The position numbers were made by a program, and so were the translations under genes. 64,000 bases of DNA from Curvularia clavata (taxonomy: Eukaryota). The stretch is taken from assembly GCA_023920165.1 (NCBI GenBank), contig CP089275.1, positions 1,488,001 to 1,552,000 on the forward strand. The letters are read 5' to 3'. Shown in pieces: positions 26,092 to 63,605 of the stretch (within the stretch, counting starts at the first letter, position 1; the number at the start of each line of letters is the position of its first letter). The notes under the pieces were generated by a model, which searched no databases, was not told where the DNA came from, and was given only the letters and a program-made list of their open reading frames with translations.

Positions 26092-28535
26092 TTACATCCT
26101 CTCAACAGGACTCAGACCAAGCACCCTCATACCATTGTACAGAACCTGCCTAGCAGCAACATACAGCGCCAACCTAGCAATCAGCACATTCCTCTCCGAG
26201 CCCACAACCTGTAGGTGGTCGTAGCTGCTGCTCAGGGCATGTGCCATCTTGAACAGATACGTGAGGACCGTGGTAGGCTCCTGTGTCTTGAGCGTGTTGA
26301 TGAAAGTGTCGGGCCAGCTGGCGAGTTGGCGGACGAGGTCGACGGCCTTGTCTTCCTGGAGGAGACTCAGGTCGGCAGCGGTGGCGAGATCGAGCTCAGC
26401 GAGCGAAGGGTCCGAGTCGACGGCCTTGCGGTAGATGGAGCAGAGACGGGCGTGGGCGTATTGCAGGTATGGGCCTGTGTCGCCTTCGAACGATGTCATG
26501 CGGTCCATGTCGAAGGTGTAGTTATTGATGCGCTTGCCCTTCATATCTTGGACCATGACGGCGGAGATGCCGAGTGTGTCTGCTGTTTGCTCGGGGTCCT
26601 TGACCTGGGCGTATTTGGTCTCGTTGGTCTTCATGACTTCATGCATCTTGTCGCCCACGTCCCGGAGAATATCGTCGAGGAACTTGGCGGTACCTTTTCG
26701 GGTCGACATGCCTGTAGCGGACCAATTAGTTTGAGATCTGGTACTGTGATGATGCAAGTAGGCACTTACCGAGGACCATGCCGAAGTTGATGTGTTGACA
26801 CCTGTCTGAGATGTCTTTCCTTCCCATGAGCTCCTCAATCTTGAAGAGCTGGGCCAGGTGGAGATCTTGCTGTGAGGCAACAACGTAGATCATTTTGCTG
26901 CAAGACGTTAGCGTCCCTTTCCTTTCTTGCCTTTGGAAACAAATCGTGATACATACTCGAAGTGGTACTTCTCGTCACGCTCAATGGCCGCACCGATGTC
27001 TCGCGTCAGGTACAGCGATGTGCCGTCCTTCTTCTTGACAACTGCCTTGCCCAACTTCTTGGAATGCGGTGTGAGATCTACAATGACAGCACCCTCTGAG
27101 TCCTCGCAGACCTTCTTCTCCCACATGGTCTTGGCAGCAAGTTCCATGCTCTCGTCCTTGACTTGCGACTCTCCGCTGTAGTCATCGTAGTGGATGTTCA
27201 ACCGGGCATATGTCTGCTTGTACTTTTCAATAGAAAGATCCTGCCTCCATTAGTACAAGGTATGTCAATGAATAAAGCAAATATGCTCACCCTGAAGCGT
27301 TTCCAGATACCAAGAGCCTTGGGCTCGCCATCTACCATTCCCTTGAAGTATTTTCTGGCCTGCTCATCAATTCCCTCTTCCTCAATCTTCTTAATCTGCT
27401 TCTCCTGCTCCGATGCGTCTTTGCCCTCCTCTTTGAGCTTCGCGACCTCAGCCTTGAGAGCCTTGACCTGCTCTGCCTCGTTGTGCTGAACATTGCTGAC
27501 CTTGACGTAGATGTCGTACAGATGTCCGATAGGGTTCTTGACGAGCTCTTCCTCGCTTCCGTACAGATCAAAACCAATAGCCAACACACCATATTGCTTT
27601 CCCCAATCACCGAGATAGTTCATGCGAATAACATCCCATCCCGCACCCTCATACAGGTTTGCAAGGAAACCACCAATAATTGTGCTTCGCAAGTGACCGG
27701 CGTGGAACGGCTTCGCAATGTTGGGCGAACTGAACTCGACGATCATCTTCTTGGGACCAGATGAAGGGTCGGACGGGTCCTTGAGGCCCAGGTTCTTGTT
27801 GAATCCATAGCTTTCCTTGGACTTGAGGACCATAGGTAGAACAAGCGAGGTGAGGGTTTCGGGCTTGAAGAAGAAGCCAATTGAAGTGTTGGTAACAATT
27901 GGCTTCTTGACTAGGGGTGACTCTGGGAAGGCGTCTGCCAACTCCTGTGCGAATGCCTTCATGTCCTTCTTCTTTTGGCGAAGCGCCGGAACAGCCAACT
28001 GCAGATCGCCATGCTCGGGCTTCGCGGTCCAAGCCAACGTAGGGTATATTATTTTCTTGTCGACGCCGGAGACAGAGGAAAGCAACTCTGTGATGTGACT
28101 CCTGTAGATGTCGAAGGGGTTCAGGGTAGGGTATGTGTTGGGCTCTTGTGGGACCTTCTCAAGGCCGAGCTTTGATAGAGTGTTTGTGAGATCTTCCATG
28201 GTGACTACTGGGTGCGCCGACGCGTCAAGATCTGGAAAAGGCTTGAAGGGTGCCAAGCTGATGTGTGAGTAGCGTCGAAGAGACAGGAGGGTTTGTGGCT
28301 CTCTCTTAGTCTCGTAGCTGAGTGTAGTAGGTCTCGTGTACGAGTGTGGTGCGAATTGGGTGCGGAGTGGTAGTTGGGATGAGAATGCGCGCAGAGTAGA
28401 AGCACGCTTAGGGCCGGCGTGTGACAAGAGTGTCTGAGTCAAAGAAGAGGAGCAAGTCGCCAGCGGCCTCGTCAAATGAGTGGTAGGAAAATTTAAAAGT
28501 CTGGCGCGACAAATATTCGTAAGGCTTTGCTGCAT
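26092..28535 (-). CDS. argS: Arginyl-tRNA synthetase; in-frame ATGs at 28535 (long form) and 28199 (short form)
   Basis: Four exons (introns 27290-27241, 26956-26898, 26769-26712). [22 protein letters not shown] (HIGH), [27 protein letters not shown], ends ERM. Confidence 0.97.
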
Positions 28536-31500
28536 TCCAAATGTGGGGTAGCTGCGATGCGTCAATGGTTCCAGAGGGTTGCAATGAGAACGCGCTAACT
28601 AAAATTTTGGAGGGGCATTTCATCGCGCTAAAGCCTGGTTGGGACTAGCACAGTTTGCCCCTCCATCTTGTATAGTATCGAAGGTGCTGCTTGTATCAAC
28701 GAACACCAGATGAGGCTGTCACTCGCGTGACGGCAGTAATGAATAATTGGACGCAATCTGCCAGAAGCCCAAACGCCACCCTGCACTCTATTTGATTACC
28801 CGCATAAAAGGTGTCACGACATTGCTATGAGGCATGTACCGGCACGCCTCGCGCAATCCAGCTCTTGTACCTCTACATTCTGACGTGCGCATAAGGTACA
28901 AGACCATCATATACTCGAACCAGCAACCAATACATCTTGCCCCAGTGATAGGGTACAGCATGTAGAAGGCTGAGTGACCGCATATTGCTCGTGTCAGGTG
29001 AGACTGGGTAGGCGTATGGTAGCGCGCCATGCCGATTCCATTGAGCTTCTTTCCGATTCATGATCGTGTATGTGTCTTGCAAAACCGAATCCCTTTCTTT
29101 CTTCTTAGCAGAAGTATATTTTCGAGAAGGAGGCATAGAATATCGACGTGCATGTCTTGTTTGCGTAGGGGCTCACCTGACCCTATTTTCTCTTCTTCGT
29201 GCTAGTTGCTGTCTCGCAATCGTTGAAGAAACTAAGTCATCGCTCCAACAGAGAATCAAAGCAAATGCAGGGAAGACGCTTGAACTTTCGCTGTTCTTCT
29301 TTGAAATTCGTTAGCGAATGGTGTCCGCCATATGTGTCCAATTCAGAGTAACTTCTTTCCAATTAATTGGTGTCATTCTGCTTTCCAAGGCTTGGGATGA
29401 TCTTTGTAGATCTATGCATTCCACTCGATGACAGAATCATACTGCGCCACATATACCTTGGCAGTACATAAATGCCACCTCAACATCTATCTGGTTGGGA
29501 TGCTTGTATCACATTTGCTTTGATCACCATAAAGCGTGCCCTGCATGGCTACTGCTTTTTGAACTGTTTTAGTATAACGCCTTTGCACAGAACCATCACT
29601 AAGCGGACTATGCCATGCCTAGACAAGGAACTATATATGATGCGTTATTGTGCTTTTCTATCCATTTGCCTTGTCGGAAGTCACTTCAGTGGTGATGACT
29701 GAGGTTGGGTCGAAAGGCGGTGCAGGATTCAGATATGACATGAACATTCATCTGTGTAGAAAAGACTGCAAACAGTCCGCAGGCAAGCCCGGAAAAAGCA
29801 AATGGCAACTTCTTTCTTTGTTTGTCTGGTGCCAGGTTTGATTGAAGCTTCGAGGATCAGGCTGACAATTCGACCCCCCTGACATTACGCCATGACAGCC
29901 TCGGGGCGCTCGGTGGCGCTGCGCGATCCTGCGCGCGCAGCGTGATACTCGAAAGCCTCCGCAAGCCTCCCAATATTTGCTACTATCCACTGATATAGGC
30001 AGGATGCTTCACATCAGTCAAATCGTTAACCCTACTTTCGCAAGCAGTCTTAAAGCCGTGCAACGCCCTAAGAGAGCTGATTTCAATTCTAAAACAAAAA
30101 TTCTGAATGCCCGATTTTGTGGCTGTGAGTCGCCGAGTCATAACGAGGCTGGTTTGGATGCATGCGGTAAATAAAGCCTTGAGATATGCAATGATAGAGG
30201 TCAAAGTAGTTAGTGGTACTTCATCCAACCCCGAGACATCGTAGATAGCTTTCTCGAACTTGCAAATGTGAGCAGGGTCACAAATCACGCAGCAACAACC
30301 ACTGCCAGCGGGTGTAGACTGCATTGAGAGAAGTGCCTGACCAATTAGGACCGCAAAGTGACATCTTGCTTTGTCGATAGGTGAAGAGTCTGGGCAGCTG
30401 CGATCGCTGGGCCAGACTGTCAGCAGTACATGCCGCTGACTTTGTGACTCCTCCGAATCACGTTCTTGGCTCAAAGCCAAGAACCTAGGACGATCCTGAA
30501 GGGTCATATGGTTTGGTCAACAAGAATGAATTATTTGCGTACACTGTGCCTAGTCTTTCCGGACTTTAGTCATCCCTCTTTTGCTCTCGTGCATGACGAA
30601 GGCACATAGTCAGATTCTACACAGACACAGCTGAACACTGATGCATCATCAGCTTCAACACTCAAGAGGTATGGAGATTGCCAGAATACCCTAGCCAAAT
30701 CGTGACAGGGTCTGGGTTGTATCTGAGAGGGTAGCGGCTTGTACAACGTGACACCATCGATTGATTGCTGCACTCCACCACGTTCCAAGATATCGTCGCA
30801 TTTCATGGCCATGGTTTCGTCTGAACCGGTACTGGGTTCGCTTCCAATGCCATGGTTGAACAGATACTCACGCTTTTGAGCAAATCTGACTAGGGGTGAG
30901 CCTCACGATCTTGGTTTGTACCCAGAACGAGTATGCGAGTATCCTATGACTCGGGAAAATTACTCTTTGTAGAAAATGTGGCAGTCAACAAAAGTGCTGC
31001 CTCCGAAAGACGACTTGCAAGAAATCAAGCGGAGAACCGACTCCACCTGCCAAAGGGGGTTCGCTGAAGTTTGCATCATGTAAGCGGGGCGCATTGAATT
31101 TAACCATCATGCGGTAAAGAGAGCTCACGGCTGAAAAGATGATGTTGAATTAGGCATCCAGAAGCGTCTGTCAAAAGTCTCAGACGGTTGGAAAGGTGAG
31201 GCGAACGAAAAGATATGCAGGTATCTCGACACGGCCAAGAAGAGTGGGACCGTCGGAATCTTGGAACCAATCTGTAGCTAGCGATCAAATAGCAAGTGGG
31301 CTCGCTGGTAGGATCTCAGTTGCTGCATTGAGCTTCTGCTAAAGCATCACCGCCTTTTCCTGCGTGAAACTAGTATGGCCTCTCCTAGGGAAATGAGTGT
31401 AGGACAAAGCAAGGCTGTCCTTGCCATGTTCTCATGTTCGCAAACGTGCATTGATGTTGAGCAAACCGAGTCGAGAAACTCCAAGGCCACATAGTGTGCG

Positions 31501-41809: not shown

Positions 41810-42866
41810 ACACCATAACACCCTTGTACTACTGATGTTCCGACTTTCACGAAACATGAGTGGGATGCTAATGAGTAATAATATATCGTCCCTGGGTAGT
41901 CTTCATGGTTTGGGAGTTTTCTGTTCCCATACTCTTTGTACATAACTGTTTGGCTTTACAATTGGGTCTTTGCTGGCCCCTCGCATAGTCACTCCTTAAA
42001 ATCGTTTAGCATATTCATAGTGGTAATGTAAGAATACTGGTTTCACCAAATTTTAAATGTGCCTTTGTTGTGAGTCGCGAGTGTTTCCAAGTGGTCGAAA
42101 AATGTTGCATCACTGCTCGCTAACAACCAAGTGACAACTTGATGGTGACATCTTTTCTCTAGCATCATATCAGCCTCAACGCGGTTAATATGTTGTTGCA
42201 AAAAAAGACGCGGTTGACTTTTGCCGCTCAAGTTTGGGCAGCCATTATGTCAGCAGAAGTCAGGCTTCGTTGGTGCCAAACAAGGAAGGAGGGCTTCTAA
42301 AGCGAGTTTTAGTAGCCCAGAATGCCGGGACGCGCGTGCCCCACAGCGCGTGATCGGGTGGTACGGGCGGGGAACGGTACGCTCGCCTTGTATACACACC
42401 ACCATTACGCGCTTCTAGAATGACGGGAATTCGAAAAAGAAGGGCGTCCGGGATTAAATACGGCTTATGTCTTTGGCGCACCTGGGTTGTGGCGGTCGAC
42501 AGCGTAAGGCGGGTATGGTGGTACGACAAGAGGGGGCGGGAACCTGAGTTCAAACGTGGGGTAGGGTGTCAAGCAAGGAGGGGAGTGATTGAAAGTGCGG
42601 GGAAGCTGATGCCCCCCGTTTCATCTGATTCGATAGGAGGCAATGCGAACGTATCCGCGGGACGCGGCCCAAAGGTACGTACCACCCCTTATGTACCTTC
42701 GAGGGTGAGTTGACAACCGTGGCACCTTTTCAGTGCTCACTTACACGGTCCTTTTTGCAAGTCTCCTACTGCCATCTTTTTGCTATTCTTTTCAGGAACA
42801 AGACAGCCAGCAGATGCGGGTACCGGGCTTCTTCTCCTCTCTTTGCTTGCCCTCGTTCAAGACAGC

Positions 42867-45800
42867 ATGAGGTCCTCAGCAAACTGTCTCGCCGGGTGCA
42901 GGACAGCCGTTTGTCCGCCGCGGGGCAGCGTGCTTGCTGCCTTGAAGCCACCAGTCGTCAGATCAACGCCTGTGTTTCGACGACAGATCCGCTCCAAGCA
43001 CAACGGGATCCAAGTTGGTACTACTGGCGTACGCAGCCTTAGCCGTCCGCTCCCGCTGTCCCTGCAGAAGCATGTCTCGCAGATTACTGCTGTTGCGCGC
43101 TATGCATCCCATGCACCGGAGCCACACGACGAGGAATTGCCTACCTCACCGCCTTTCTCTGCAGGTCCGTATGCGAATTTAACCATTGGTGTGCCAAAGG
43201 AAAGCTTTCCCGGCGAGAGGCGTGTAGCCATTACGCCACAGAATGTGAAGCTACTTCTCAAAAAAGGTTTCTCGCGCGTCTTGGTCGAGCGGGGTGCGGG
43301 GGCAGAGGCTCAGTTCGTAGATGAAGCGTACGAACAAGCTGGTGCCCACGTCGTAGACCGCCGAAGTGTCTTCTTACAAAGCGACATCTTGCTCAAGGTG
43401 CGAGCGCTTAGCATCGATGGGAAGGATAGTGAGGTCGACTCCATCCGAGAGGGTGCTACTGTCATTTCCATGCTCTACCCCGTGCAGAACCGACCAACTG
43501 TTGAACGTCTAGCCTCCCGAAAGGCGACCGCGTTTGCCATGGATATGGTTCCTCGAATTTCTCGAGCCCAGGTTTTCGATGCTTTGAGTTCCATGGCAAA
43601 TATTGCTGGCTACAAAGCTGTTTTGGAGGCCTCGAATCACTTTGGACGCTTTCTCACTGGTCAAGTCACTGCTGCTGGAAAAATTCCTCCTTGCAAAGTT
43701 CTCGTTATTGGAGCTGGTGTCGCGGGTTTGAGTGCTATTGCTACTGTCAGTATATTCTTAGTCCAAGGAGGAATAACACTAACGCCCCAAAAATAGGCTC
43801 ACCGCATGGGAGCCATAGTCCGTGGTTTTGATACTCGCTCCGCTGCACGTGAGCAGGTCCAGTCTCTTGGGGCTGAGTTCATTGAAGTCGACATCAAAGA
43901 GGACGGATCTGGTGCCGGCGGTTATGCCAAAGTAATGTCCAAGGAATTCATCGAAGCCGAAATGAAGCTGTTCTACGAACAGTGCCGAGAAGTCGATATC
44001 GTGATTACCACAGCTCTGATCCCAGGAAAGCCCGCCCCTAAACTCATTACCAAGGCTATGCTCGGTGCAATGAAACCCGGCTCGGTCGTGGTTGATTTGG
44101 CCGCCGAGGCTGGCGGCAATTGCGAAGCTACTGTTCCTGGACAGCTGATCAAATACGAAGGAGTCAATGTCATCGGTGGGTGACGATACATGCTGAAGGT
44201 GTTCGCTGCTGATTCAGTGCCTAGGCTATACCGACCTTCCATCTCGTTTGCCTACTCAGTCATCCACTCTTTACTCGAACAATGTGACCAAGTTTCTGCT
44301 CTCACTGACCCCGAAAGACAAGAAAGATAAGTACTACGACGTTGATCTTACCGATGAAGTCACCCGCGGAGCTATCGTTACCTACAACGGCCAGATTCTG
44401 CCTCCAGCTCCGCGTCCTGCTCCTCCACCAGTTCAGGCTAAGCCAGCCCCGTCGCCAGCTGACCAGGACGCAAACGTCGTCGCTCTAACGCCATGGCAAA
44501 CCCAGACTAGACAGGTAGCAACTGTGACGGCTGGTATGACTACTGCTCTTGCCCTCGGAAAGCTTACCGGCCCACTGTTTATGTCCAACGCATTTACATT
44601 CGCTCTGGCCAGTCTTATTGGATACCGCGTCGTATGGGGAGTGGCACCAGCACTGGTACGTAATCTTTATACTGAAGTCAAGCAGGAGGCGATTACTAAC
44701 GTCATGAACCTGAACTTAGCATTCCCCATTGATGAGTGTGACGAATGCAATTTCTGGAATGGTAGGTGTAGGAGGTCTCTTCGTCATGGGTGGCGGGTAC
44801 CTGCCGGAAACGATTCCCCAGACGCTCGGTGCCTTGTCGGTCCTACTCGCTTTTGTCAACGTATCTGGAGGCTTTGTTATCTCGAAGAGGATGCTAGATA
44901 TGTTCCGGCGCCCCACGGACCCGAAGGAGTATCCTTGGCTGTATGCTATCCCTGCAGCTTTGTTCGGCGGCGGCTACATAGCAGCCGCCTCAACTGGTAT
45001 GGCTGGTCTTGTCCAAGCAGGCTACCTTGTCAGTAGCCTTCTCTGTATGACTTCGTTGTCAGGGTTGGCATCACAGACCACGGCTCGTCGTGGGAACATT
45101 CTGGGTATACTCGGTGTGTTCTCTGGTATCCTGGCGTCGCTGGCAGCCGTTGGCTTTACCACCGATGTACTTACTCAATTCGCTGGATTGGCCACTGTCG
45201 GTACTGTCGCTGGACTTGTGATTGGACGGCGAATAACTCCAACATCCCTTCCGCAGACAGTGGCAGCGCTACACTCGGTTGTTGGTCTTGCTGCCGTTCT
45301 CACCAGTATCGGCAGTGTCCTTGAGCACACTGGCGAGATTTCGACTCTCCACATGGTTTCTGCGTACTTGGGTGTCCTCATCGGTGGAGTCACATTCACT
45401 GGATCGATTGTAGCCTTCCTAAAGCTGGCCGCAAAGATGAGCTCGAAACCATTAGCACTGCCTGGTCGACATGTCATCAACAGTTCACTTCTGGGGGCAA
45501 ATTTTGCGACCATGGGAGCATTCCTGGCTTACGCACCAGGTGCACCTATGATAGGTGCGGCATGTCTTGTTGGCAACGCTGTTCTATCGTTCATCAAGGG
45601 ATATACCACCACGGCTGCCATCGGTGGAGCCGACATGCCTGTGGTCATCACGGTTCTGAACGCATACTCGGGCTTTGCCCTCGTTGCTGAAGGCTTCATG
45701 CTTGACAACTCATTGCTGACAACCATTGGTGCACTCATTGGTGTATCCGGTTCCATCCTTTCCTACATCATGTGCGTGGCCATGAACCGGTCATTGACTA

Positions 45801-46449
45801 ATGTGTTGTTTGGCGGCATAGCGCCAACAGCCCAGGCACAATCGGCGGTTGAGGGAGAGATAACCAAGACGACAGCCGAGGAGACGGCCGACTCGCTTGT
45901 CAACGCAGAGAATGTCATCATCGTTGTAGGCTACGGAATGGCCGTGGCCAAGGCGCAATACGCATTGGCTGAGTTTGTGAGTATGCTGCGTGCAAAGGGC
46001 GTCAATGTCCGATTCGCCATCCACCCGGTTGCAGGACGGATGCCTGGTCAATGCAACGTTCTTCTAGCCGAAGCCAGTGTTCCGTACGACATTGTCCTGG
46101 AAATGGACGAGATCAACGACGATTTTGCGGACACGGACGTAACGCTCGTGATTGGGGCAAACGATACGGTAAACCCAATCGCTCTGGAGCCAGGCAGCGC
46201 GATTGCAGGCATGCCGGTCTTGCACGCATGGAAGAGCAAGCAAGTCGTCATCATGAAGCGCGGTATGGCCAGTGGATATGCGGATGTGCCGAACCCGATG
46301 TTCTTTATGGAGAATACCAAGATGTTGTTTGGCGACGCCAACGACAGCTGCAATGGTAAGTACTCGGGCCATGACTGTGAGTGAAGCATATGCTAACGAC
46401 AAGGTCAGCTATCAAGCGCGCGCTGGAGGAGAAGATCAAAGGATTGTAG
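42867..46449 (+). CDS. NNT: Mitochondrial proton-translocating NAD(P) transhydrogenase (fused alpha-beta)
   Basis: Exons 42867-43745, 43797-44175, 44225-44655, 44720-46355, 46409-46449. Presequence, [59 protein letters not shown]. Confidence 0.97.
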
Positions 46450-52171: not shown

Positions 52172-54581
52172 ATGTCCGCACTAACAGATCAGCTGGCAGC
52201 GCCATCTGACAAAAGACGGCGTATTGATCGCGTCATAGCAGCATGCGATCTGTGCAGAAGAAGAAAAGTGAAGTGCAACGGCGAATTACCATGTGCATAC
52301 TGCATCCGGAAGAATCACGCTGCTACATGTGCCTTCAGTGGTCCATCCAAGGAAAATCAAATTCGTTCTGCTGGAGGCTCTCCTAATACACGCGTTCATA
52401 CTGAGGGTTCTCCTTTTCGTCGACTTCACTCAGGCCATACGTCAGAAAATCGAGATAACAACGTCCGAACAAACACTCCTCAAGGATCACGATACCAGCA
52501 TGACAACGCTCAAACTGGGACATCTTTGTCACCGACTCTGAGCAGAGATGACCAACAAGCTGACACAGTTGTACCCCTTGAAGGCCGTATCCTCCGTGAT
52601 GCACAAGGCAAGCTCATCTTCATTGGTGATTGCGCACCATTGTCCTTTCTGCAAACGGTCAAACATCTCATTACATCCGAGGTGGACTCGGGAGTTCCGG
52701 TACAGGCCGCGAGGGATCCCATCATCGAAATTACGCGGCCCACATTAGTGGACCAACAACATTGTCCGTCCGTGGAGCTTCATCAGGTGGATGTTCTAGT
52801 CTCAGAGTACATTGTGGCTAGCAGTGGCCTTGTGCAACTATTCGAACGCGAGGATCTATTGCCCGAGCTGAAGCATTGGGCGAGTGGTCAGAATTCCGGC
52901 CCTGATGATGCTGCGGCTGCTGTCTTTTATCTGGTGCTCGCCATTGGTGCCCAAGACAAGTTCGAAGACAAAGCAGAAGCCTGGTTCAAGCATGCGCTCA
53001 ACATTCTACAAAAATTCTTATGCAGTAATATGAATGTGTCAACGGTACAGGGCTTCACACTAGTTGCTGTCTTTATGCTCCGCGCTTCTCAGCCAAATGG
53101 CGCATACTTGTATTTTTGTAAGCGGCAGCATATATGACCGGTTCCAGATTACTGGCTGACAACCACTAGCTTTGGCTGCACGAACTGCCTATGCGATTGG
53201 TCTTCACCGGACTGAAGTCAATGCATCTTTTGGCCAGAATATCAGACTAGTTAGGGATCGCATATGGAAGAGTCTACGTGTTATTGACCAACTTATCAGG
53301 TAAGTTTGCATGATACAAGTTCTCTTAGCAGGTGCCTGCAACGAAATTTTGAACAATCTGCTAATGCGACAAAGGTATGTTCAATGTTTTCCTACATCGA
53401 GTATTTCAAAATACCGACCCTTCCATGGTCCCATTGCGGTATGACCCGCTAACCAATGCTGTGCGGCAATGCAGTAATGTTCTAGGTCGACCTCCCTCCA
53501 CTTCTGATGTTGACTGCACTGTCAAATACACGCCTCCTGAAGAAATACAGGAAGACTTTAATGCCAATGTCCTGGATGCAAGTGTGCAAATCTTCATGAT
53601 AATCGAACGTGTAGTCGTTGAAGTGTACTCGCGCAAGCGGATATCTTTACGGATTGCTGATTATGTGTCGAAGCAATTGAAGAGTTGGGCATCCAAATGG
53701 CTCAGCAGTCTATCTGATGTCACAGCCAGACGACCCTCTCGTGAGGCAACAATCGGCGCTTGCTCTACGTTATGCTCCTATTACTATGGTATCATGCTAC
53801 TTACCCGGCCCTTCCTGATATACGAGCTTTACGAGTACATGGGTGCTTCGCTCAAGAGCGGAGGCACACCAGCTGATCATCAAGAGAAACGCAAATATGC
53901 GGATGCCGCAATTGATGCTGCTTCGGTGTTAGTTGATACGCTACGGAATTTGATCAACGCAGATCAGCTGCCTCGCAGGATGCCATTGGTGGTGTAAGTT
54001 GAATTACGCTTCAAAACTGACGTCTGCTGATCAATCCTAGATCCTGGCTCTTTACCGCTACACTAGTGCTAGCTGTCGGTATTCTAGGGAACTCTGGTCT
54101 TCTTTTGGAGGATACCTGCAAAGAAGGCATTGCCTGCATGGATTACTTTGGCCAAGTTGACCATCACGCTCGTCAATACTCACACGCTGCTCAGTCTCTG
54201 CTCAAAATCACAACAGCACATGCGAAGAAGAGGGAACTCCATCTGCGCCGAAAGAGGAAACAGGCTTCATCTGAATTGTTTGGTCTACTACCAACCGAGC
54301 CGATTCATCAGGCACATTCAACCGATGGTCATCAGCCACGACCAGAGCCCCGTTTACTAGCCCCTACGGAAACCACGCAGCAGAATCTCCCCGCACATGC
54401 GCCGCTTGATTGGACTATTTACGATGCTGACTTTTTCGCTCTGCCATGGCCAAGTGAGAACGATCAAGGTCTTCAGGATTTCCTTCAGCCAGGCACTCAT
54501 AATCTTGATGGTGCATCTGTGGCTGATATACCGCTCTTTCCCATTCATGACCAACAGATGGCCAGCGGATTCTTCCCTTAG
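52172..54581 (+). CDS. Zn(II)2Cys6 transcription factor with fungal middle homology region
   Basis: ACDLCRRRKVKCNGELPCAYCIRKNHAATC, AYAIGLHR, DQLISNVLGRP, LLTRPFL. Exons 52172-53117, 53170-53299, 53475-53993, 54041-54581. Confidence 0.93.
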
Positions 54582-54639
54582 ACCAATGGTAATCTTGGCT
54601 GTCATTAGAGGTTTCAAACTACTCTTCATATTCGAGCTT

Positions 54640-55955
54640 TCAATGTGTGACCTTCGTTTCGCTGGTTTCATCTCTTGATGTTCGTAGGAACGGAATCAGC
54701 TTGGTGCCTCCAGTGCCAACCAGCTCTTGCGTCTTTGGCTTTTCCGAGGCCATCTTCGTAGAAGCAGAAGCGATATCCATCCTCTTGATATGGCTTACTG
54801 GCTTCCCCATGCGACTTGGTATGATAATGTACCTTGTAACGAGGGCAATGTGCTTATCGCGGAAGCCACTGAGGGCTGCGACTGCTGCGTTGAAAGCTGA
54901 AAGAAGGACAGCATTGTCTTGATGGTCATTCACGTAACTGCGGATGTTCGCGATGGATTCAACGTCGTCCAAGAATCTAGCGTGGGGTCCGGGCATGTAT
55001 CCACGCATTTCTGAGTGGAAGCCACCACTTCTCGAATGGTCCACAGAAAGCACCGCGTCGAAGAACTGTAGTAAGGATGATTGTCCATTCGAACCACCTC
55101 GGTAGGCTCGCCATGTGCCCTTGCCATTGCCTTCGTCATAGAACACACCGTTCGGGAGACCGGCAGCTGCCATGTTCATGCTACCAGCCAAAAATGGTCG
55201 AATGGTGTGATAAAACATCTGGGGATCGCATCGCTCATCCATACGTTCTAGGAGTTTTCCAATGCTCTCCATGCCTGTCTCAAAGTATTGCAGAGCATTT
55301 ACAACTGTCGCGGCATCGTCCCTCTCCACGGCGTCAATGGCGCCGAGCATAGTCTCGATGAGTGGGCCAGCCCTTGCCTCCATAGCATTCGAGATGATGA
55401 AGAACCATGATTCGTCATCGCTGCCAGTAGCTGTGTGCAGAGAAACCATGTTCTCCGGTTGGGTCAGATCAGCGTCATCCGACAATGGTCTCCAGTTCCA
55501 TAGGTTCAGCGAGGCATATGTGGCAACGGGGTGTACCTCAAGATGTGCAGCCGTCTCAAGGAAAGGTACAGTTATCGCAGGAGGTAATCGCTGTGTTTTT
55601 AGTCAGTGCTGTTGGTCAATACACGGGAAGAGGCTGCCTTGCTTACTTCTGAAGGCTCAGGTCCTGTCCAAATGTATCCTTGGGCCATGACAGCTAGCAT
55701 CGAGTGTGCTCTTTGCCATTCTGCCTCAGTATCCAGATATGATGTCTCGAGAACAGGCAATTCATCAACCCATTGTCGTATTTGTTGTGTTTCGATAAGG
55801 ACAGGAAGCTTTTCTATGATCTGTTCCCAGGGGCGGTAGTAGGCCTGGGGTAATTGTGACAACGGAGGCTCAGCTGGGAGAAACCCATTTTTGGAAATGC
55901 CATATTCTGGTAGCGCAGAAGGCGACGGAAGAGTGGGAATTTTGTGAGGACTCAT
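54640..55955 (-). CDS. BNA2: Indoleamine 2,3-dioxygenase
   Basis: Exons 55955-55647 and 55590-54640. FYHTIRPFLAG, GGSNGQSSLLQFFD, MRGYMPGPH, FRDKH (proximal His), GTGGT. Paralog class not determined. Confidence 0.95.
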
Positions 55956-56363
55956 TGTGAACAGAACAAATTGCACTAAGATTCTCTAGATTCTGAGCTA
56001 TAGGTCTACTAAAAGAGCGGCGAAGACCGCATTTATCATAAAGCTATAAAAGCCATGATGGCCCACTTGGCTAGGTCAAACAGGTATCACGATTGCGAAA
56101 GGCCTAGGCGCGTCGGATCGGATGCCAGACGGAAGCGCAACGGAAGTCAAACGGGCGCGCGACGGAACATCGTCGGATAGCCAAAACAAGAAGGTGGCAG
56201 GCTAACGCATACATGCCGGTTCTTGTGCCAGGTGTTGCAAGACGTAAGTGAAACTGCCGAATATATATTTGGACGTCTGTTTCTCATTCAAATTTCACAA
56301 ACCGTTCATTCAGTCGTCAGCAAAAGTTCGTGTTACACATCGTCATCTTGATCCATAATCATC
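55956..56363. promoter_or_regulatory. 408-bp bidirectional IDO/kynureninase promoter with a CGG(A) cluster
   Basis: Head-to-head genes; seven co-oriented CGG triplets in 56111-56178; TA-rich boxes near 56045 and 56261. Confidence 0.65.
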
Positions 56364-57836
56364 ATGGACGTTTCCAGCGCGATCAAGCAACTCCGCCAAG
56401 GACAAAAGCCACAGTGGCCCACAGACGCCGAGTCATTCGACTTTGCCCGAAAACTCGATGAAAGTACCGAAATACCGCATACGTTTCGCCCCGAGTTCGT
56501 CGTTCCCAGCAAAGCGCAACTCAAGCGAAAAACTCTCAAGGACGATGCGCAAACAGCAAACCCAGCAACGAGTGCAGACGATGAGGCCATATACTTCTGC
56601 GGCAACTCGTTAGGCCTCCAGCCGAAGGCTGTCGGCGAGCACTTGAACGCCTACCTCAAGACATGGGGGTCCATAGCTGTCGGCGGCCATTTCACTGCCC
56701 TTGAGGATTCACCACTTACTCCCTATCAAGACATGGCTGCTGAATGTTCAAGAAAAATGGCCAAAATCGTTGGAGCATCACCTTCAGAGATTGTTGCTAT
56801 GAACACGTTGACCATCAACTTGCACCTGATGATGGCGGCTTTCTACAAGCCGACTGGAACGAAGCACAAGATCATGTGCGAATGGCGGCCTTTTCCCAGC
56901 GACTGGTATGCAATTGAGTCGCAGATTGAATGGCACGGACTGGACCCAAAGAAGTCAATGTTGCTGGTACAGCCAGACGACGGCTACAGCATGACAACGG
57001 AAAACATCCTCAGGCTTATTGATGAGAACGTTAATGAGCTCGCACTCATAATGCTGCCTGGTATCCAATATTATAGTGGCCAACTCCTTGACATTCCAAC
57101 CATTACTGCCCATGCGCGGAAACACAACATCACGATTGGTTGGGACCTTGCTCATGCTGCTGGCAATGTCGAACTCAAGCTACATGAATGGGACGTTGAC
57201 TTTGCCTGCTGGTGTACATACAAGTACATGAATGCAGGAGCTGGTGCTATCGCAGGTGCCTTCATTCACGAGAAGCATGGCAACAACGACCACTACAAGG
57301 GCCTCAAGGGCTGGTACGGTCACGACAAGTCCTCCCGCTTCCAGATGGACAACCGATTTGTTCCTACACCTGGCGCGCAAGGTTTCCAGTGCTCAAACCC
57401 TTCGATCGTCGACCTCACTTGCTTGTCTGGGGCACTTAGCGTCTTCGAACAGACATCAATGACAGACCTGCGCTCGAGGTCATTGCTGCTTACCGCCTAC
57501 GCTGAACACCTTCTTTCCCAAATCGCCGCACGAAACATCAAAGACGGCGCTTTTCCTTTCGAAATCATTACTCCCATGGATCCTCGTTTCCGCGGCGCAC
57601 AGCTTAGCGTTCTGCTGCCCGAAGACATGTTTGACGAGGCCAGTGCAAGACTGGTAGAGAACGGCGTCGTGTGCGACAAGAGGAAACCAGGTATCATTCG
57701 AGTTGCACCCGTTCCCTTGTACAATACTTTTGGCGATGTTTGGAGGTTTATGCAGATCTTTGAAGAGGCGCTGAGGACGAAGGGAAAGGATCAAAGTCAG
57801 TCGAAGGGGGCAGCGCCAGTAGAGGCTAGACTTTAG
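56364..57836 (+). CDS. BNA5: Kynureninase (PLP-dependent), C-terminal ARL
   Basis: Intronless 490 aa. YFCGNSLGLQP, MNTLTINLHLMM, GWDLAHAAGN, WCTYKYMNAG (PLP Lys), IRVAPVPLYN. Confidence 0.96.
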   Translation: MDVSSAIKQLRQGQKPQWPTDAESFDFARKLDESTEIPHTFRPEFVVPSKAQLKRKTLKDDAQTANPATSADDEAIYFCGNSLGLQPKAVGEHLNAYLKTWGSIAVGGHFTALEDSPLTPYQDMAAECSRKMAKIVGASPSEIVAMNTLTINLHLMMAAFYKPTGTKHKIMCEWRPFPSDWYAIESQIEWHGLDPKKSMLLVQPDDGYSMTTENILRLIDENVNELALIMLPGIQYYSGQLLDIPTITAHARKHNITIGWDLAHAAGNVELKLHEWDVDFACWCTYKYMNAGAGAIAGAFIHEKHGNNDHYKGLKGWYGHDKSSRFQMDNRFVPTPGAQGFQCSNPSIVDLTCLSGALSVFEQTSMTDLRSRSLLLTAYAEHLLSQIAARNIKDGAFPFEIITPMDPRFRGAQLSVLLPEDMFDEASARLVENGVVCDKRKPGIIRVAPVPLYNTFGDVWRFMQIFEEALRTKGKDQSQSKGAAPVEARL

Positions 57837-61485: not shown

Positions 61486-63605
61486 TCACATCAGCCCTTT
61501 GCCTTCTTGTAGTAGCGCGATACCTTGCTCTTTTAACTTGAACTTTTGTATCTTGCCGCTCGCTGTCTTGGGATAATTGTCTACCCAGAAAACGTATTTT
61601 GGTACTTGGTTTAGATGTCAGCTTGTATCGCGCTTGCAATCTTCATGTATACTTACCCAGATGATGGCTTAGCTTTTCCCTGACCCAAGTTCTCACTTCA
61701 TCGGCGGTTATTTTTCCGTCTTCTCCAGCATGTCTTACAATGAAAGCTGCGACGACCTCACCGTATCGCTCATCTGGTAGCCCGACGACACTAACTTCGC
61801 TGACGGCTGGATGGGCGAAGAGACAGTTCTCAACTTCTAATGGGTGGATATTCTCTCCGCCTTTGATAATGAGATCTTTGATCCGACCGGTGATCTTGAT
61901 GTAGCCTTCCTCATCCATGGATGCCTCGTCGCCAGTGTGCATCCACATAATGCCGTCTTTATCTGGTTGGAGTACTTCTGCCGTGCGCCCCGGATCGTTC
62001 CAATAACCTTTCATGAGGAGATATCCCGAGACGGCCAGTTCACCACGTTGACCCACATTGAGCGTTTGTGACCAGTCAGAAGCATTGACGACCTTGGCAC
62101 GAACATGTGGAAGAAGACGGCCTACGGTGTTGATGCGCTTCTCAATGGGATCGTCGGTAGTGGTCATGGCGGATACGGGACTTGTCTCTGTCATGCCATA
62201 GCAGATTGTCAATTCTGTCAGGTTCAAGATCTTATGAAGCTTGCGCATGAGCTCGGCAGGAATGGAGGAGCCGGCTGCAATGCCAGTGCGCAAATGCTGG
62301 AAACCTTCGTATGGCACAACACCGTTGGCTAGGAGCTCCAGCTCCGCCACAAACATGGTAGGAACACCGTATAGGGCAGTGCACTTGTATTCGCGGACGG
62401 CTTCGAGAGTGGCAAGATCATTGAACGCCTCAGTCGGGAAGACTATGGCACTTCCATGCGTAGCTGTAGCCATGTATCCGAGGATGCATCCGAAGCAGCT
62501 GTGTATAGTCAGGCGTCAAATAGTTCAATGCATGCAGGGCGACTTACTGGAAGAGTGGAGGTGGACAACAAACCACATCGTTTTCCGTCAGTAACATCCT
62601 GTCGCCGATACTATTGCCATTGTTCAAGATACTTCTGTGGCTCAAACACGCAGCTTTCGGCATGCTCGTCGTACCCGATGTAAATTGGATATTGACAATA
62701 TCATTGGGATCCAATCCCTGGTCCTCCAATGCCGCGCCTTGGCCACCGTCCTCTATTATATTTTGGTATCTTCCCAAGCTCCTGTACTCATCTAGACTTA
62801 TCCTCCCTTGGGCATTGTCCACCAATACGACATTCTTCAGCGAAGGAACGAGTTCGGATTCGAGTTTCGGGCCAGTAAGATTAGGTATCAGATGGGTAAG
62901 CAACGGGATGTTCGGGCGTGGGTCTTTGCGAGGAAGGTTTGTTTCGGCTCCGATTATGAGATGGGCGGTGTCCAGGTGGTTGATTGCGTTCAGAACCTGT
63001 GGGGCGTTGAACGAGGGATTGAGGGGTACCTATGAGTCAATTGGCTTACAGCCCATCTTTTTTCACTCCGGATTCTTACATACCAGTATCGCCCCCAGTT
63101 TGAAAAGCGCATACGTGATCTTTGAGGTCATCAGCTTTTGTTTCTCACAATATAGACTCGCAACATACAGTAGCAAACTCAATGTTATTGCCCAAGCTCA
63201 CGGCGACCCTGTCTCCCTTCTTTACGCCCAGGTTTTGTAGTCCCCTTGCGAGCCTGTTCGAATCGCGATCCAGTCCATCGTACGTCAACCGGATGCGTTG
63301 ATGGTGCGAGATTACTCTACACAAGACTTAGTCATGATGCGACCAGACGGATAGTGGCCCGCATACGCATCACGGTCACCATACTGTCTCACAACTCCTG
63401 CAAAGTGTTGGGGGACAGTTTGTTCGAGCAATGGGGGCTGTACCGAGTTGTCAGTACAATGGAAGCTATGAGGTCGTGGGGAAGTGGGGCCGAATTGATG
63501 TACCTCGGTAGGTCCAATGCTGTATGCTTGTGTGAGGAGGCCTCTCTGTGTAATTCGCACAGGCTTAGGGTATCTTGTAGCTCTTGACACGAGCTTCCGG
63601 AGCAT
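61486..63605 (-). CDS. Acyl-CoA synthetase (ACSF2-like), probably mitochondrial
   Basis: Seven exons. Basic presequence, [55 protein letters not shown]. Confidence 0.93.

Follow-up and report, generated by a model that had tools for sequence, protein, structure and literature searches.

We analysed a window of 64,000 nucleotides (nt) from the genome of Curvularia clavata (contig CP089275.1, positions 1,488,001 to 1,552,000; coordinates below count from the first letter of the window). In it, a four-exon gene encoding a Zn2Cys6, fungal-specific transcription factor carries a second intron of 175 nt that reads as two complete introns laid end to end (Table 1). RNA contigs showed that the 175 nt are removed completely, and one contig of low depth indicates that the upstream unit (unit A) is removed alone in some transcripts and that a frameshifted isoform including part of the downstream unit (unit B) is made. 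We lean towards the view that this is a composite intron, removed partly in two steps.

The last letter of exon 2, which ends in ATCAG, is 53299, and exon 3 starts at 53475; joining the two gives an open frame of 711 codons. The join restores the amino-acid stretch LIS/NxLGRP, which orthologous proteins read without a gap (59 of 60 aligned; the exception, the protein model P0005, is described below). Exon 1 of the factor matches PF00172 (Zn_clus; residues 24-61, E 3.2e-09). The window exons, scanned singly, gave no match to PF04082, a domain carried, along with PF00172, by the full-length orthologues (at most 79% identical, precomputed annotation). The best protein match is from Bipolaris oryzae (79% in exon 1, 85% in exon 3), followed by Alternaria and Pyrenophora, and these protein searches put the gene in the Pleosporales.

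Anatomy of intron 2

Both units carry a full set of splice signals, and none of the six is interrupted in the genomic DNA, unit A ending before G1 of the unit B donor. In unit A, the branch adenosine lies 10 nt from the G of the acceptor AG, with no AG between them. In unit B, the CAG acceptor is the first AG downstream of the GCTAAC branch motif, and the unit could, to judge from its signals, be excised on its own. The units meet at AAG/GTATGT (53372-53380), and removal of unit A creates the join CAG/GTATGT, that is, a regenerated donor. The stretch contains what defines a recursive splice site in sequence, an internal acceptor abutting a donor and a branch site serving that acceptor. Within unit B, the segment 53375-53438 begins with GTATGT and is followed by a donor of its own, GTATGA at 53439, which is the layout of a recursive-splicing exon (RS-exon).

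An earlier, sequence-only reading of this DNA (the first-pass annotation) had described two complete abutting introns at 53300-53474, and every coordinate and motif that it gave was right. It was also right about partial removal: with unit A retained, the frame runs into TAA at once, and with unit B retained it stays open for 22 more codons and then meets TGA.

Units A (75 nt) and B (100 nt) are closer than the whole 175 nt to the usual sizes of the other introns of the gene. Intron 1 measures 47-64 nt in 21 of 27 sequences of the factor gene and intron 3 measures 44-54 nt in all 10. AAG acceptors are common in these fungi, occurring in 8 of the 27 intron 1 copies. Long copies of intron 1 (175-243 nt) are present in four of the orthologous loci introduced below (L004, L011, L013 and L015), whose best matches are Plenodomus or Phaeosphaeriaceae proteins; none of these long copies was found to have a strict abutting site of the kind defined below.

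Transcripts across intron 2

Contigs of four of 16 sequencing runs (X1, X9, X15 and X16) were compared with the window, a bridge over a joint being counted from 31 letters per side. Run X1 yielded one contig of 3790 nt, at depth 103, from which introns 1 (52 nt), 2 (175 nt) and 3 (47 nt) are exactly missing. This establishes that the outer junction, 53299^53475 (GT..AG), is real and that the form carrying it is abundant. The final mRNA thus lacks the entire 175 nt, as it should with a zero-nucleotide exon. In runs X1-X8, which come from two studies, 0.69-0.70 of the sampled words were present; by our own arithmetic, this is about the share expected for a spliced message with a few strain differences.

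Run X15 contributed one contig of 228 nt (contig 3, depth 3.15), all of whose letters lie on the window with no mismatch. It reads 53299^53375, keeps the 64 nt from 53375 to 53438, and continues with 53438^53486, both skips being GT..AG. As aligned, the contig keeps 53373-53437, which becomes 53375-53438 after the cuts are shifted; the second joint, a 47-nt skip that is GT..AG at cut +1, has 65 and 135 letters on its sides. X15 has no cover over any intron of the factor gene and therefore behaves as RNA, and the joint 53299^53375 means that unit A was removed alone. Across the composite intron this run assembled the alternative form alone. An isoform including the 64 nt, as expected of an RS-exon, therefore exists, seen in a single run at low depth.

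The alternative isoform gains 64 nt and loses 11 nt of exon 3, a net change of +53 nt, so that the frame shifts; a stop follows at codon 417. The GCTAAC motif lies only 3 nt after the donor of the 47-nt intron and is for that reason hard to use in its removal, and the use of TAG 53485 instead of CAG 53474 suggests a non-consensus branch near 53477. This partner event, the 64-nt exon together with the intron 53439-53485, was unforeseen by the first-pass annotation. What that annotation had proposed was two-step recursive splicing, to be recognized by two junctions. One of them, 53299^53375, is present in the RNA-type contig of X15, in agreement with unit A being excisable alone. The other, 53374^53475, which would mark removal of unit B first, was not seen in the contigs of the four runs (X1, X9, X15 and X16).

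A search for proteins of the truncated isoform gave 122 matches of 173-552 amino acids, and the 24 inspected end in intron 1 or read the canonical junction. Those ending in intron 1 are gene calls on unspliced DNA.

Table 1. Positions of the factor gene, the parts of its second intron, neighbouring genes and related loci
Feature	Position	Strand	Details
Zn2Cys6 / fungal-specific transcription factor gene	52172..54581	+	ATG to stop, 4 exons
Exons of the factor gene	52172-53117, 53170-53299, 53475-53993, 54041-54581	+	
Intron 1, ordinary control	53118..53169	+	52 nt, GTAAGC..TAG; joint 53117^53170 in X1
Composite intron 2	53300..53474	+	175 nt, phase 2, inside the Ser codon of LIS/NxLGRP
Unit A	53300..53374	+	75 nt; GTAAGT donor, GCTAAT branch motif 53360-53365, AAG acceptor
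Zero-length-exon site AG/GTATGT	53373..53380	+	acceptor of A abuts donor of B
Unit B	53375..53474	+	100 nt; GTATGT donor at 53375, GCTAAC branch motif 53448-53453, CAG acceptor
RS-exon-like cassette, 64 nt	53375..53438	+	kept in the alternative isoform; starts with the GTATGT donor
Alternative intron B'	53439..53485	+	47 nt, GTATGA..TAG; acceptor 11 nt inside exon 3
Intron 3, ordinary control	53994..54040	+	47 nt; joint 53993^54041 in X1
Indoleamine 2,3-dioxygenase gene, large exon	54640..55602	-	Pfam IDO E 1e-118; convergent neighbour
Kynureninase gene, large exon	56352..57836	+	Pfam KYNU_C E 5.2e-20, Aminotran_5
Other window genes	42714-46384 (+), 27198-28598 (-), 61643-62515 (-)		NAD(P) transhydrogenase (alpha + beta), arginyl-tRNA synthetase and AMP-binding enzyme among them
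Orthologous introns	L002:4120-4222, L003:3420-3574, L005:2535-2636, L007:854-1016, L009:4130-4286		
Loci of the trio neighbourhood	L002, L004-L010, L012, L013, L015, L017-L019, L021-L025, L028		

Chance, ancestry and genomic neighbourhood

We defined a strict internal site as an AG that is immediately followed by GTRHGT and is the first AG after a CTRAY motif lying 5-35 nt upstream. In 20000 dinucleotide-preserving shuffles of the intron interior, a strict site arose in 8 (0.04%) and a site with a loose donor in 131. Over both strands of the window and 30 related loci, 452,558 nt in all, there is one strict site, namely 53374/53375, and there are 13 loose ones. The internal arrangement is beyond chance expectation.

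Three further candidates were tried and rejected. For a tandem duplication of one intron, A against B reached a local score of 11, whereas shuffles averaged 13.6 and did at least as well in 479 of 500 cases. For an introner-like repeat, A, B and the complete intron were run with blastn-short against the window and the loci; they matched themselves and nothing else but one 16-nt chance hit (E 0.7). For an RNA fold bridging the outer splice sites, the intron had a minimum free energy of -38.8 kcal/mol (z -0.39), which 65 of 200 shuffles equalled or bettered.

A metagenome scan supplied the 30 orthologous loci, 28 of which include both flanks of the intron site. The intron is absent from 21 of the 28 and present in seven (five distinct sequences), where it measures 102-163 nt and sits at the same codon and in the same phase. 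All seven carriers best match Alternaria or Pyrenophora proteins, and for the six intronless loci that were checked the best matches are Plenodomus, Phaeosphaeriaceae, Didymellaceae or Capnodiales-like proteins. Look-ups confirmed the families of Bipolaris, Pyrenophora, Plenodomus and Paraphoma; for Alternaria and the remaining groups matched by the loci, the placement is one that we assume. Being confined to the window and to Alternaria- and Pyrenophora-like loci, and missing from 21 of 28, the intron was, as this distribution indicates, gained in the lineage of the Pleosporaceae.

At this codon the intron is long in every carrier (102-175 nt). What the orthologous introns have in common is the donor, the 3' branch motif and the acceptor only, the mean column identity of the alignment being 54%; the interior evolves fast. 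In L002, L005/6 and L007/8 the intron has a single donor and, close to its 3' end, a single branch site. In L009 (4165-4185), a CTGAC branch motif is followed by TAG/GTAAAC about 50 nt into a 157-nt intron, a layout that reads as a weaker version of the same abutting arrangement.

The exceptional protein mentioned above, P0005, is a model from Alternaria alternata with 11 extra residues at the junction of exons 2 and 3. Locus L003 matches exon 3 of P0005 at 100% identity, and in it these residues map to a 44-nt internal exon (L003:3466-3509) combined with the same acceptor 11 nt inside exon 3. The insert is suggestive; it may be the choice of the predictor, and because a similarity-guided gene predictor could produce such an insert we did not count it as RNA evidence. 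The +11 acceptor reads YTAG/GTCGACC, and its AG is present in the window, L002, L003 and L009 and absent from L005/L006 and L007/L008.

The first-pass annotation had called the factor a cluster regulator. Its neighbours are genes for indoleamine 2,3-dioxygenase and kynureninase, which form with it a trio (52172-57836 in the window) conserved across Dothideomycete metagenome loci, and not a secondary-metabolite cluster. The dioxygenase lies downstream of the factor in 20 of the 30 loci and kynureninase in 14 of 30, many of the others having little or no downstream sequence. No polyketide or peptide synthetase domains were found among the 12 large open frames scanned in the window. Given the conserved dioxygenase and kynureninase neighbours, the factor is likelier to regulate tryptophan breakdown than a secondary-metabolite cluster, and the neighbourhood suggests a dedicated regulator of the kynurenine pathway. 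In one Sordariomycete gene model, P0106, the factor is fused with a dioxygenase domain. P0106, P0008 and P0036, in which the factor is joined to acetyltransferase and transporter domains or to dynamin and dioxygenase domains, are probably annotation mergers.

Interpretation and parallels

We read these results as a family-specific long intron that has acquired internal splice sites and behaves like a recursive splice site with an RS-exon. A young intron of this kind would have gained a working acceptor, AAG 53374, directly before a consensus donor, GTATGT 53375, and so become two self-sufficient units; new splice sites arising inside an existing intron are the probable origin. Unit A may then often be spliced first, recreating CAG/GTATGT. 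We expect this order in a good share of molecules because the donor of unit A, GTAAGT, is ideal and its consensus branch lies 10 nt from the first AG, because AAG acceptors are common and the branch site of unit B is transcribed about 100 nt later than unit A, and because fungal spliceosomes pair the nearest sites across the intron and choose the smallest one (PMC7138796).

In most molecules the regenerated donor would pair with GCTAAC and CAG 53474, which would amount to recursion through a zero-nucleotide exon and give the productive mRNA. In a minority, the weaker donor GTATGA 53439 would be used with the TAG 11 nt inside exon 3, the 64-nt RS-exon would be kept, and the frameshifted message would yield a truncated protein or be degraded. 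Removal in one step, from the donor of A to the branch and acceptor of B, could run in parallel. We hold two-step removal to be plausible in the making of productive mRNA.

Several results weigh against such a scheme. One-step and two-step removal give an identical mature mRNA, so that contigs cannot separate the two routes and their shares are not apportionable from mature RNA. The deeply covered run X1 yielded the fully spliced form alone, and runs X2-X8 and X10-X14 lie outside the contig comparison. The joint 53299^53375 comes from one contig in one of the four runs, at depth 3.15, and has 28-30 letters on its 5' side, below the threshold of 31; in that same contig the regenerated GTATGT is unused. 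X9, an RNA run with a word share of 0.11, placed no contig on the gene. X16 covers intron 1 unspliced and ends 15 nt into unit A, which makes it DNA-like and uninformative on splicing. A comparison of the 46-amino-acid intron frame with longer proteins gave six candidates, of which none scored, and no further isoform. AG/GTRHGT with a branch motif occurs in none of the five distinct orthologous introns (Alternaria- and Pyrenophora-like), so that the internal site bears no sign of purifying selection. The first-pass annotation had proposed to look for a conserved internal AG/GT in an alignment of these introns and had named two observations that would speak against recursion, the outer junction with a single lariat as the sole products and a lack of conservation in relatives; the alignment, with the internal AG/GT in none of five, gave the second.

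There is one alternative that we take most seriously, and regard as possible although we are inclined to doubt it: intron 2 would be one ordinary long intron removed in a single reaction (donor 53300, branch 53452, acceptor 53474), with AAG, GTATGT and GTATGA as cryptic noise and the X15 isoform as a functionless error. It accounts for the direct 175-nt skip being the sole abundant form (X1, depth 103) and for an alternative form known from one contig of depth 3.15. It is also in keeping with the lack of conservation of the internal signals, with relatives whose introns of 102-163 nt have one donor and branch in L002, L005/6 and L007/8, and with the 175-243-nt introns elsewhere in the gene family, which do without strict internal sites. 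However, the complete set of signals for two units is expected in 0.04% of shuffles, and X15 assembled across the site the alternative form alone. Moreover, a perfect GTAAGT and a branch 10 nt from its AG leave no evident reason why unit A should be bypassed.

A second alternative takes the X15 junctions as artefacts, whether of a chimeric contig, of a reverse-transcriptase jump over the five letters AGGTA or of strain DNA with deletions, in which case evidence for use of the internal site would be zero. AGGTA is indeed common to both sides of the first joint, the 5' side of that joint falls short of 31 letters, and the kind of run that X15 represents is absent from its record. We nevertheless consider an artefact very improbable, since both skips are GT..AG at consensus motifs, which a template jump would not produce twice, and since the second joint is anchored by 65 and 135 letters. 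In addition, 228 of 228 contig letters fall on the window without mismatch, and X15 is free of cover over all introns, as RNA would be.

That the locus is a stwintron, in which introns are nested and the outer works only after removal of the inner, has next to no chance of being right: the taxon fits (Pezizomycotina), as do two units excisable in sequence, but A ends just before G1 of the B donor and leaves every donor, branch and acceptor motif whole. The primary transcript already contains B unbroken, a complete outer set of signals frames the 175 nt, neither unit depends on the other, and the arrangement departs from the definition given in PMC5639578 and PMC6616335. The first-pass annotation, which had kept the locus apart from stwintrons, was correct in this because no splice signal is interrupted.

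Zero-nucleotide exons as such have already been reported in fungi. In Cryptococcus neoformans, BOT1 has one that splits a 375-nt intron into 210 and 165 nt (10.1101/224170), and in Schizosaccharomyces pombe one lies in the 336-nt intron of SPNCRNA.445, with one more case in that species (10.1101/226894). As in those cases, acceptor and donor adjoin in the window within an intron of more than usual length for the species, and none of that intron is left in the final mRNA; a junction of the first step is also indicated, in the window tentatively, by one low-depth contig. The yeast cases, in contrast, are documented by spliceosome-bound intermediates, branches and both junctions, where the window has that one contig. 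The window intron is half as long as theirs and lies in a coding gene of a filamentous ascomycete, and whereas the S. pombe site is reported to be conserved in related species, the site in the window is unconserved in the relatives compared.

The 64-nt cassette has its counterpart in the RS-exons of vertebrate and Drosophila recursive splicing (Sibley 2015 and Joseph 2018, as cited in PMC6224609). In the model set out in PMC6224609 (Blazquez 2018), the regenerated donor competes with the one that the exon itself supplies: splicing from the former takes the exon out without a trace, and splicing from the latter, downstream one leads to its inclusion. Like animal RS-exons, the cryptic exon in the window starts with a donor motif that is completed on joining the previous exon, has a donor of its own downstream, and is seen in a rare inclusion isoform. 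Animal RS-exons rely on exon definition and are found in introns tens of kilobases long, whereas the window packs everything into 186 nt, in an organism whose splice sites are paired across introns; the inclusion isoform of the window also moves the acceptor by 11 nt.

The closest evolutionary parallel is the 'stwintron sensu lato' of Lipomyces starkeyi, which is excised in one or two reactions and for which PMC7138796 proposes an origin by new splice sites inside an older long intron, giving two units; the plain long introns of the relatives fit such an origin. As with Lipomyces and with stwintrons (PMC7138796, PMC6616335, PMC5639578), two U2 units occupy one ascomycete intron position, removal is possible in one or two steps with a tie to alternative splicing and exon skipping, and relatives keep a plain intron at the same position. 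In stwintrons, however, the order is forced, since a splice motif of the outer intron is split by the inner one, whereas the units in the window abut and are mutually independent. PMC6616335 sets 'abutting U2 introns excised by recursive splicing' apart in a class of their own, for which it cites only Drosophila work and a general review. In listings and passages of the literature on stwintrons, recursive splicing in fungi, zero-nucleotide exons and abutting introns, with subscription journals outside the search, we found neither a zero-nucleotide exon from a filamentous ascomycete nor a fungal RS-exon.

A post-transcriptional switch on the factor, which the first-pass annotation had also raised, is speculation. 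After removal of unit A, competition between GTATGT and the downstream GTATGA would set the outcome, either a full activator or a frameshifted message that would be degraded or would encode a DNA-binding stub without most of the regulatory domain. The full form of this idea is a true recursive splice site with an RS-exon that acts, in a filamentous ascomycete, as a switch on the regulator of neighbouring tryptophan-degradation genes, in a recently gained intron caught dividing into two. We consider it unlikely; if true, the site would be the first of its kind outside yeasts and animals, and by far the shortest.

Recursive splicing is usually explained as a way of handling very long animal introns, an explanation that the few fungal cases, of 300-400 nt, already strain. 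For annotation, the locus is a warning that long fungal introns may hide alternative, frame-breaking products. If our reading is true, three small introns within 186 nt would offer a simple, mutable model for the choice of branch site and donor by an intron-pairing spliceosome. Recursive logic would operate at the scale of ordinary fungal introns, with two units in 175 nt and an RS-exon-like by-product, and an existing intron could split in two by point changes, the route that has been proposed for the origin of stwintrons.

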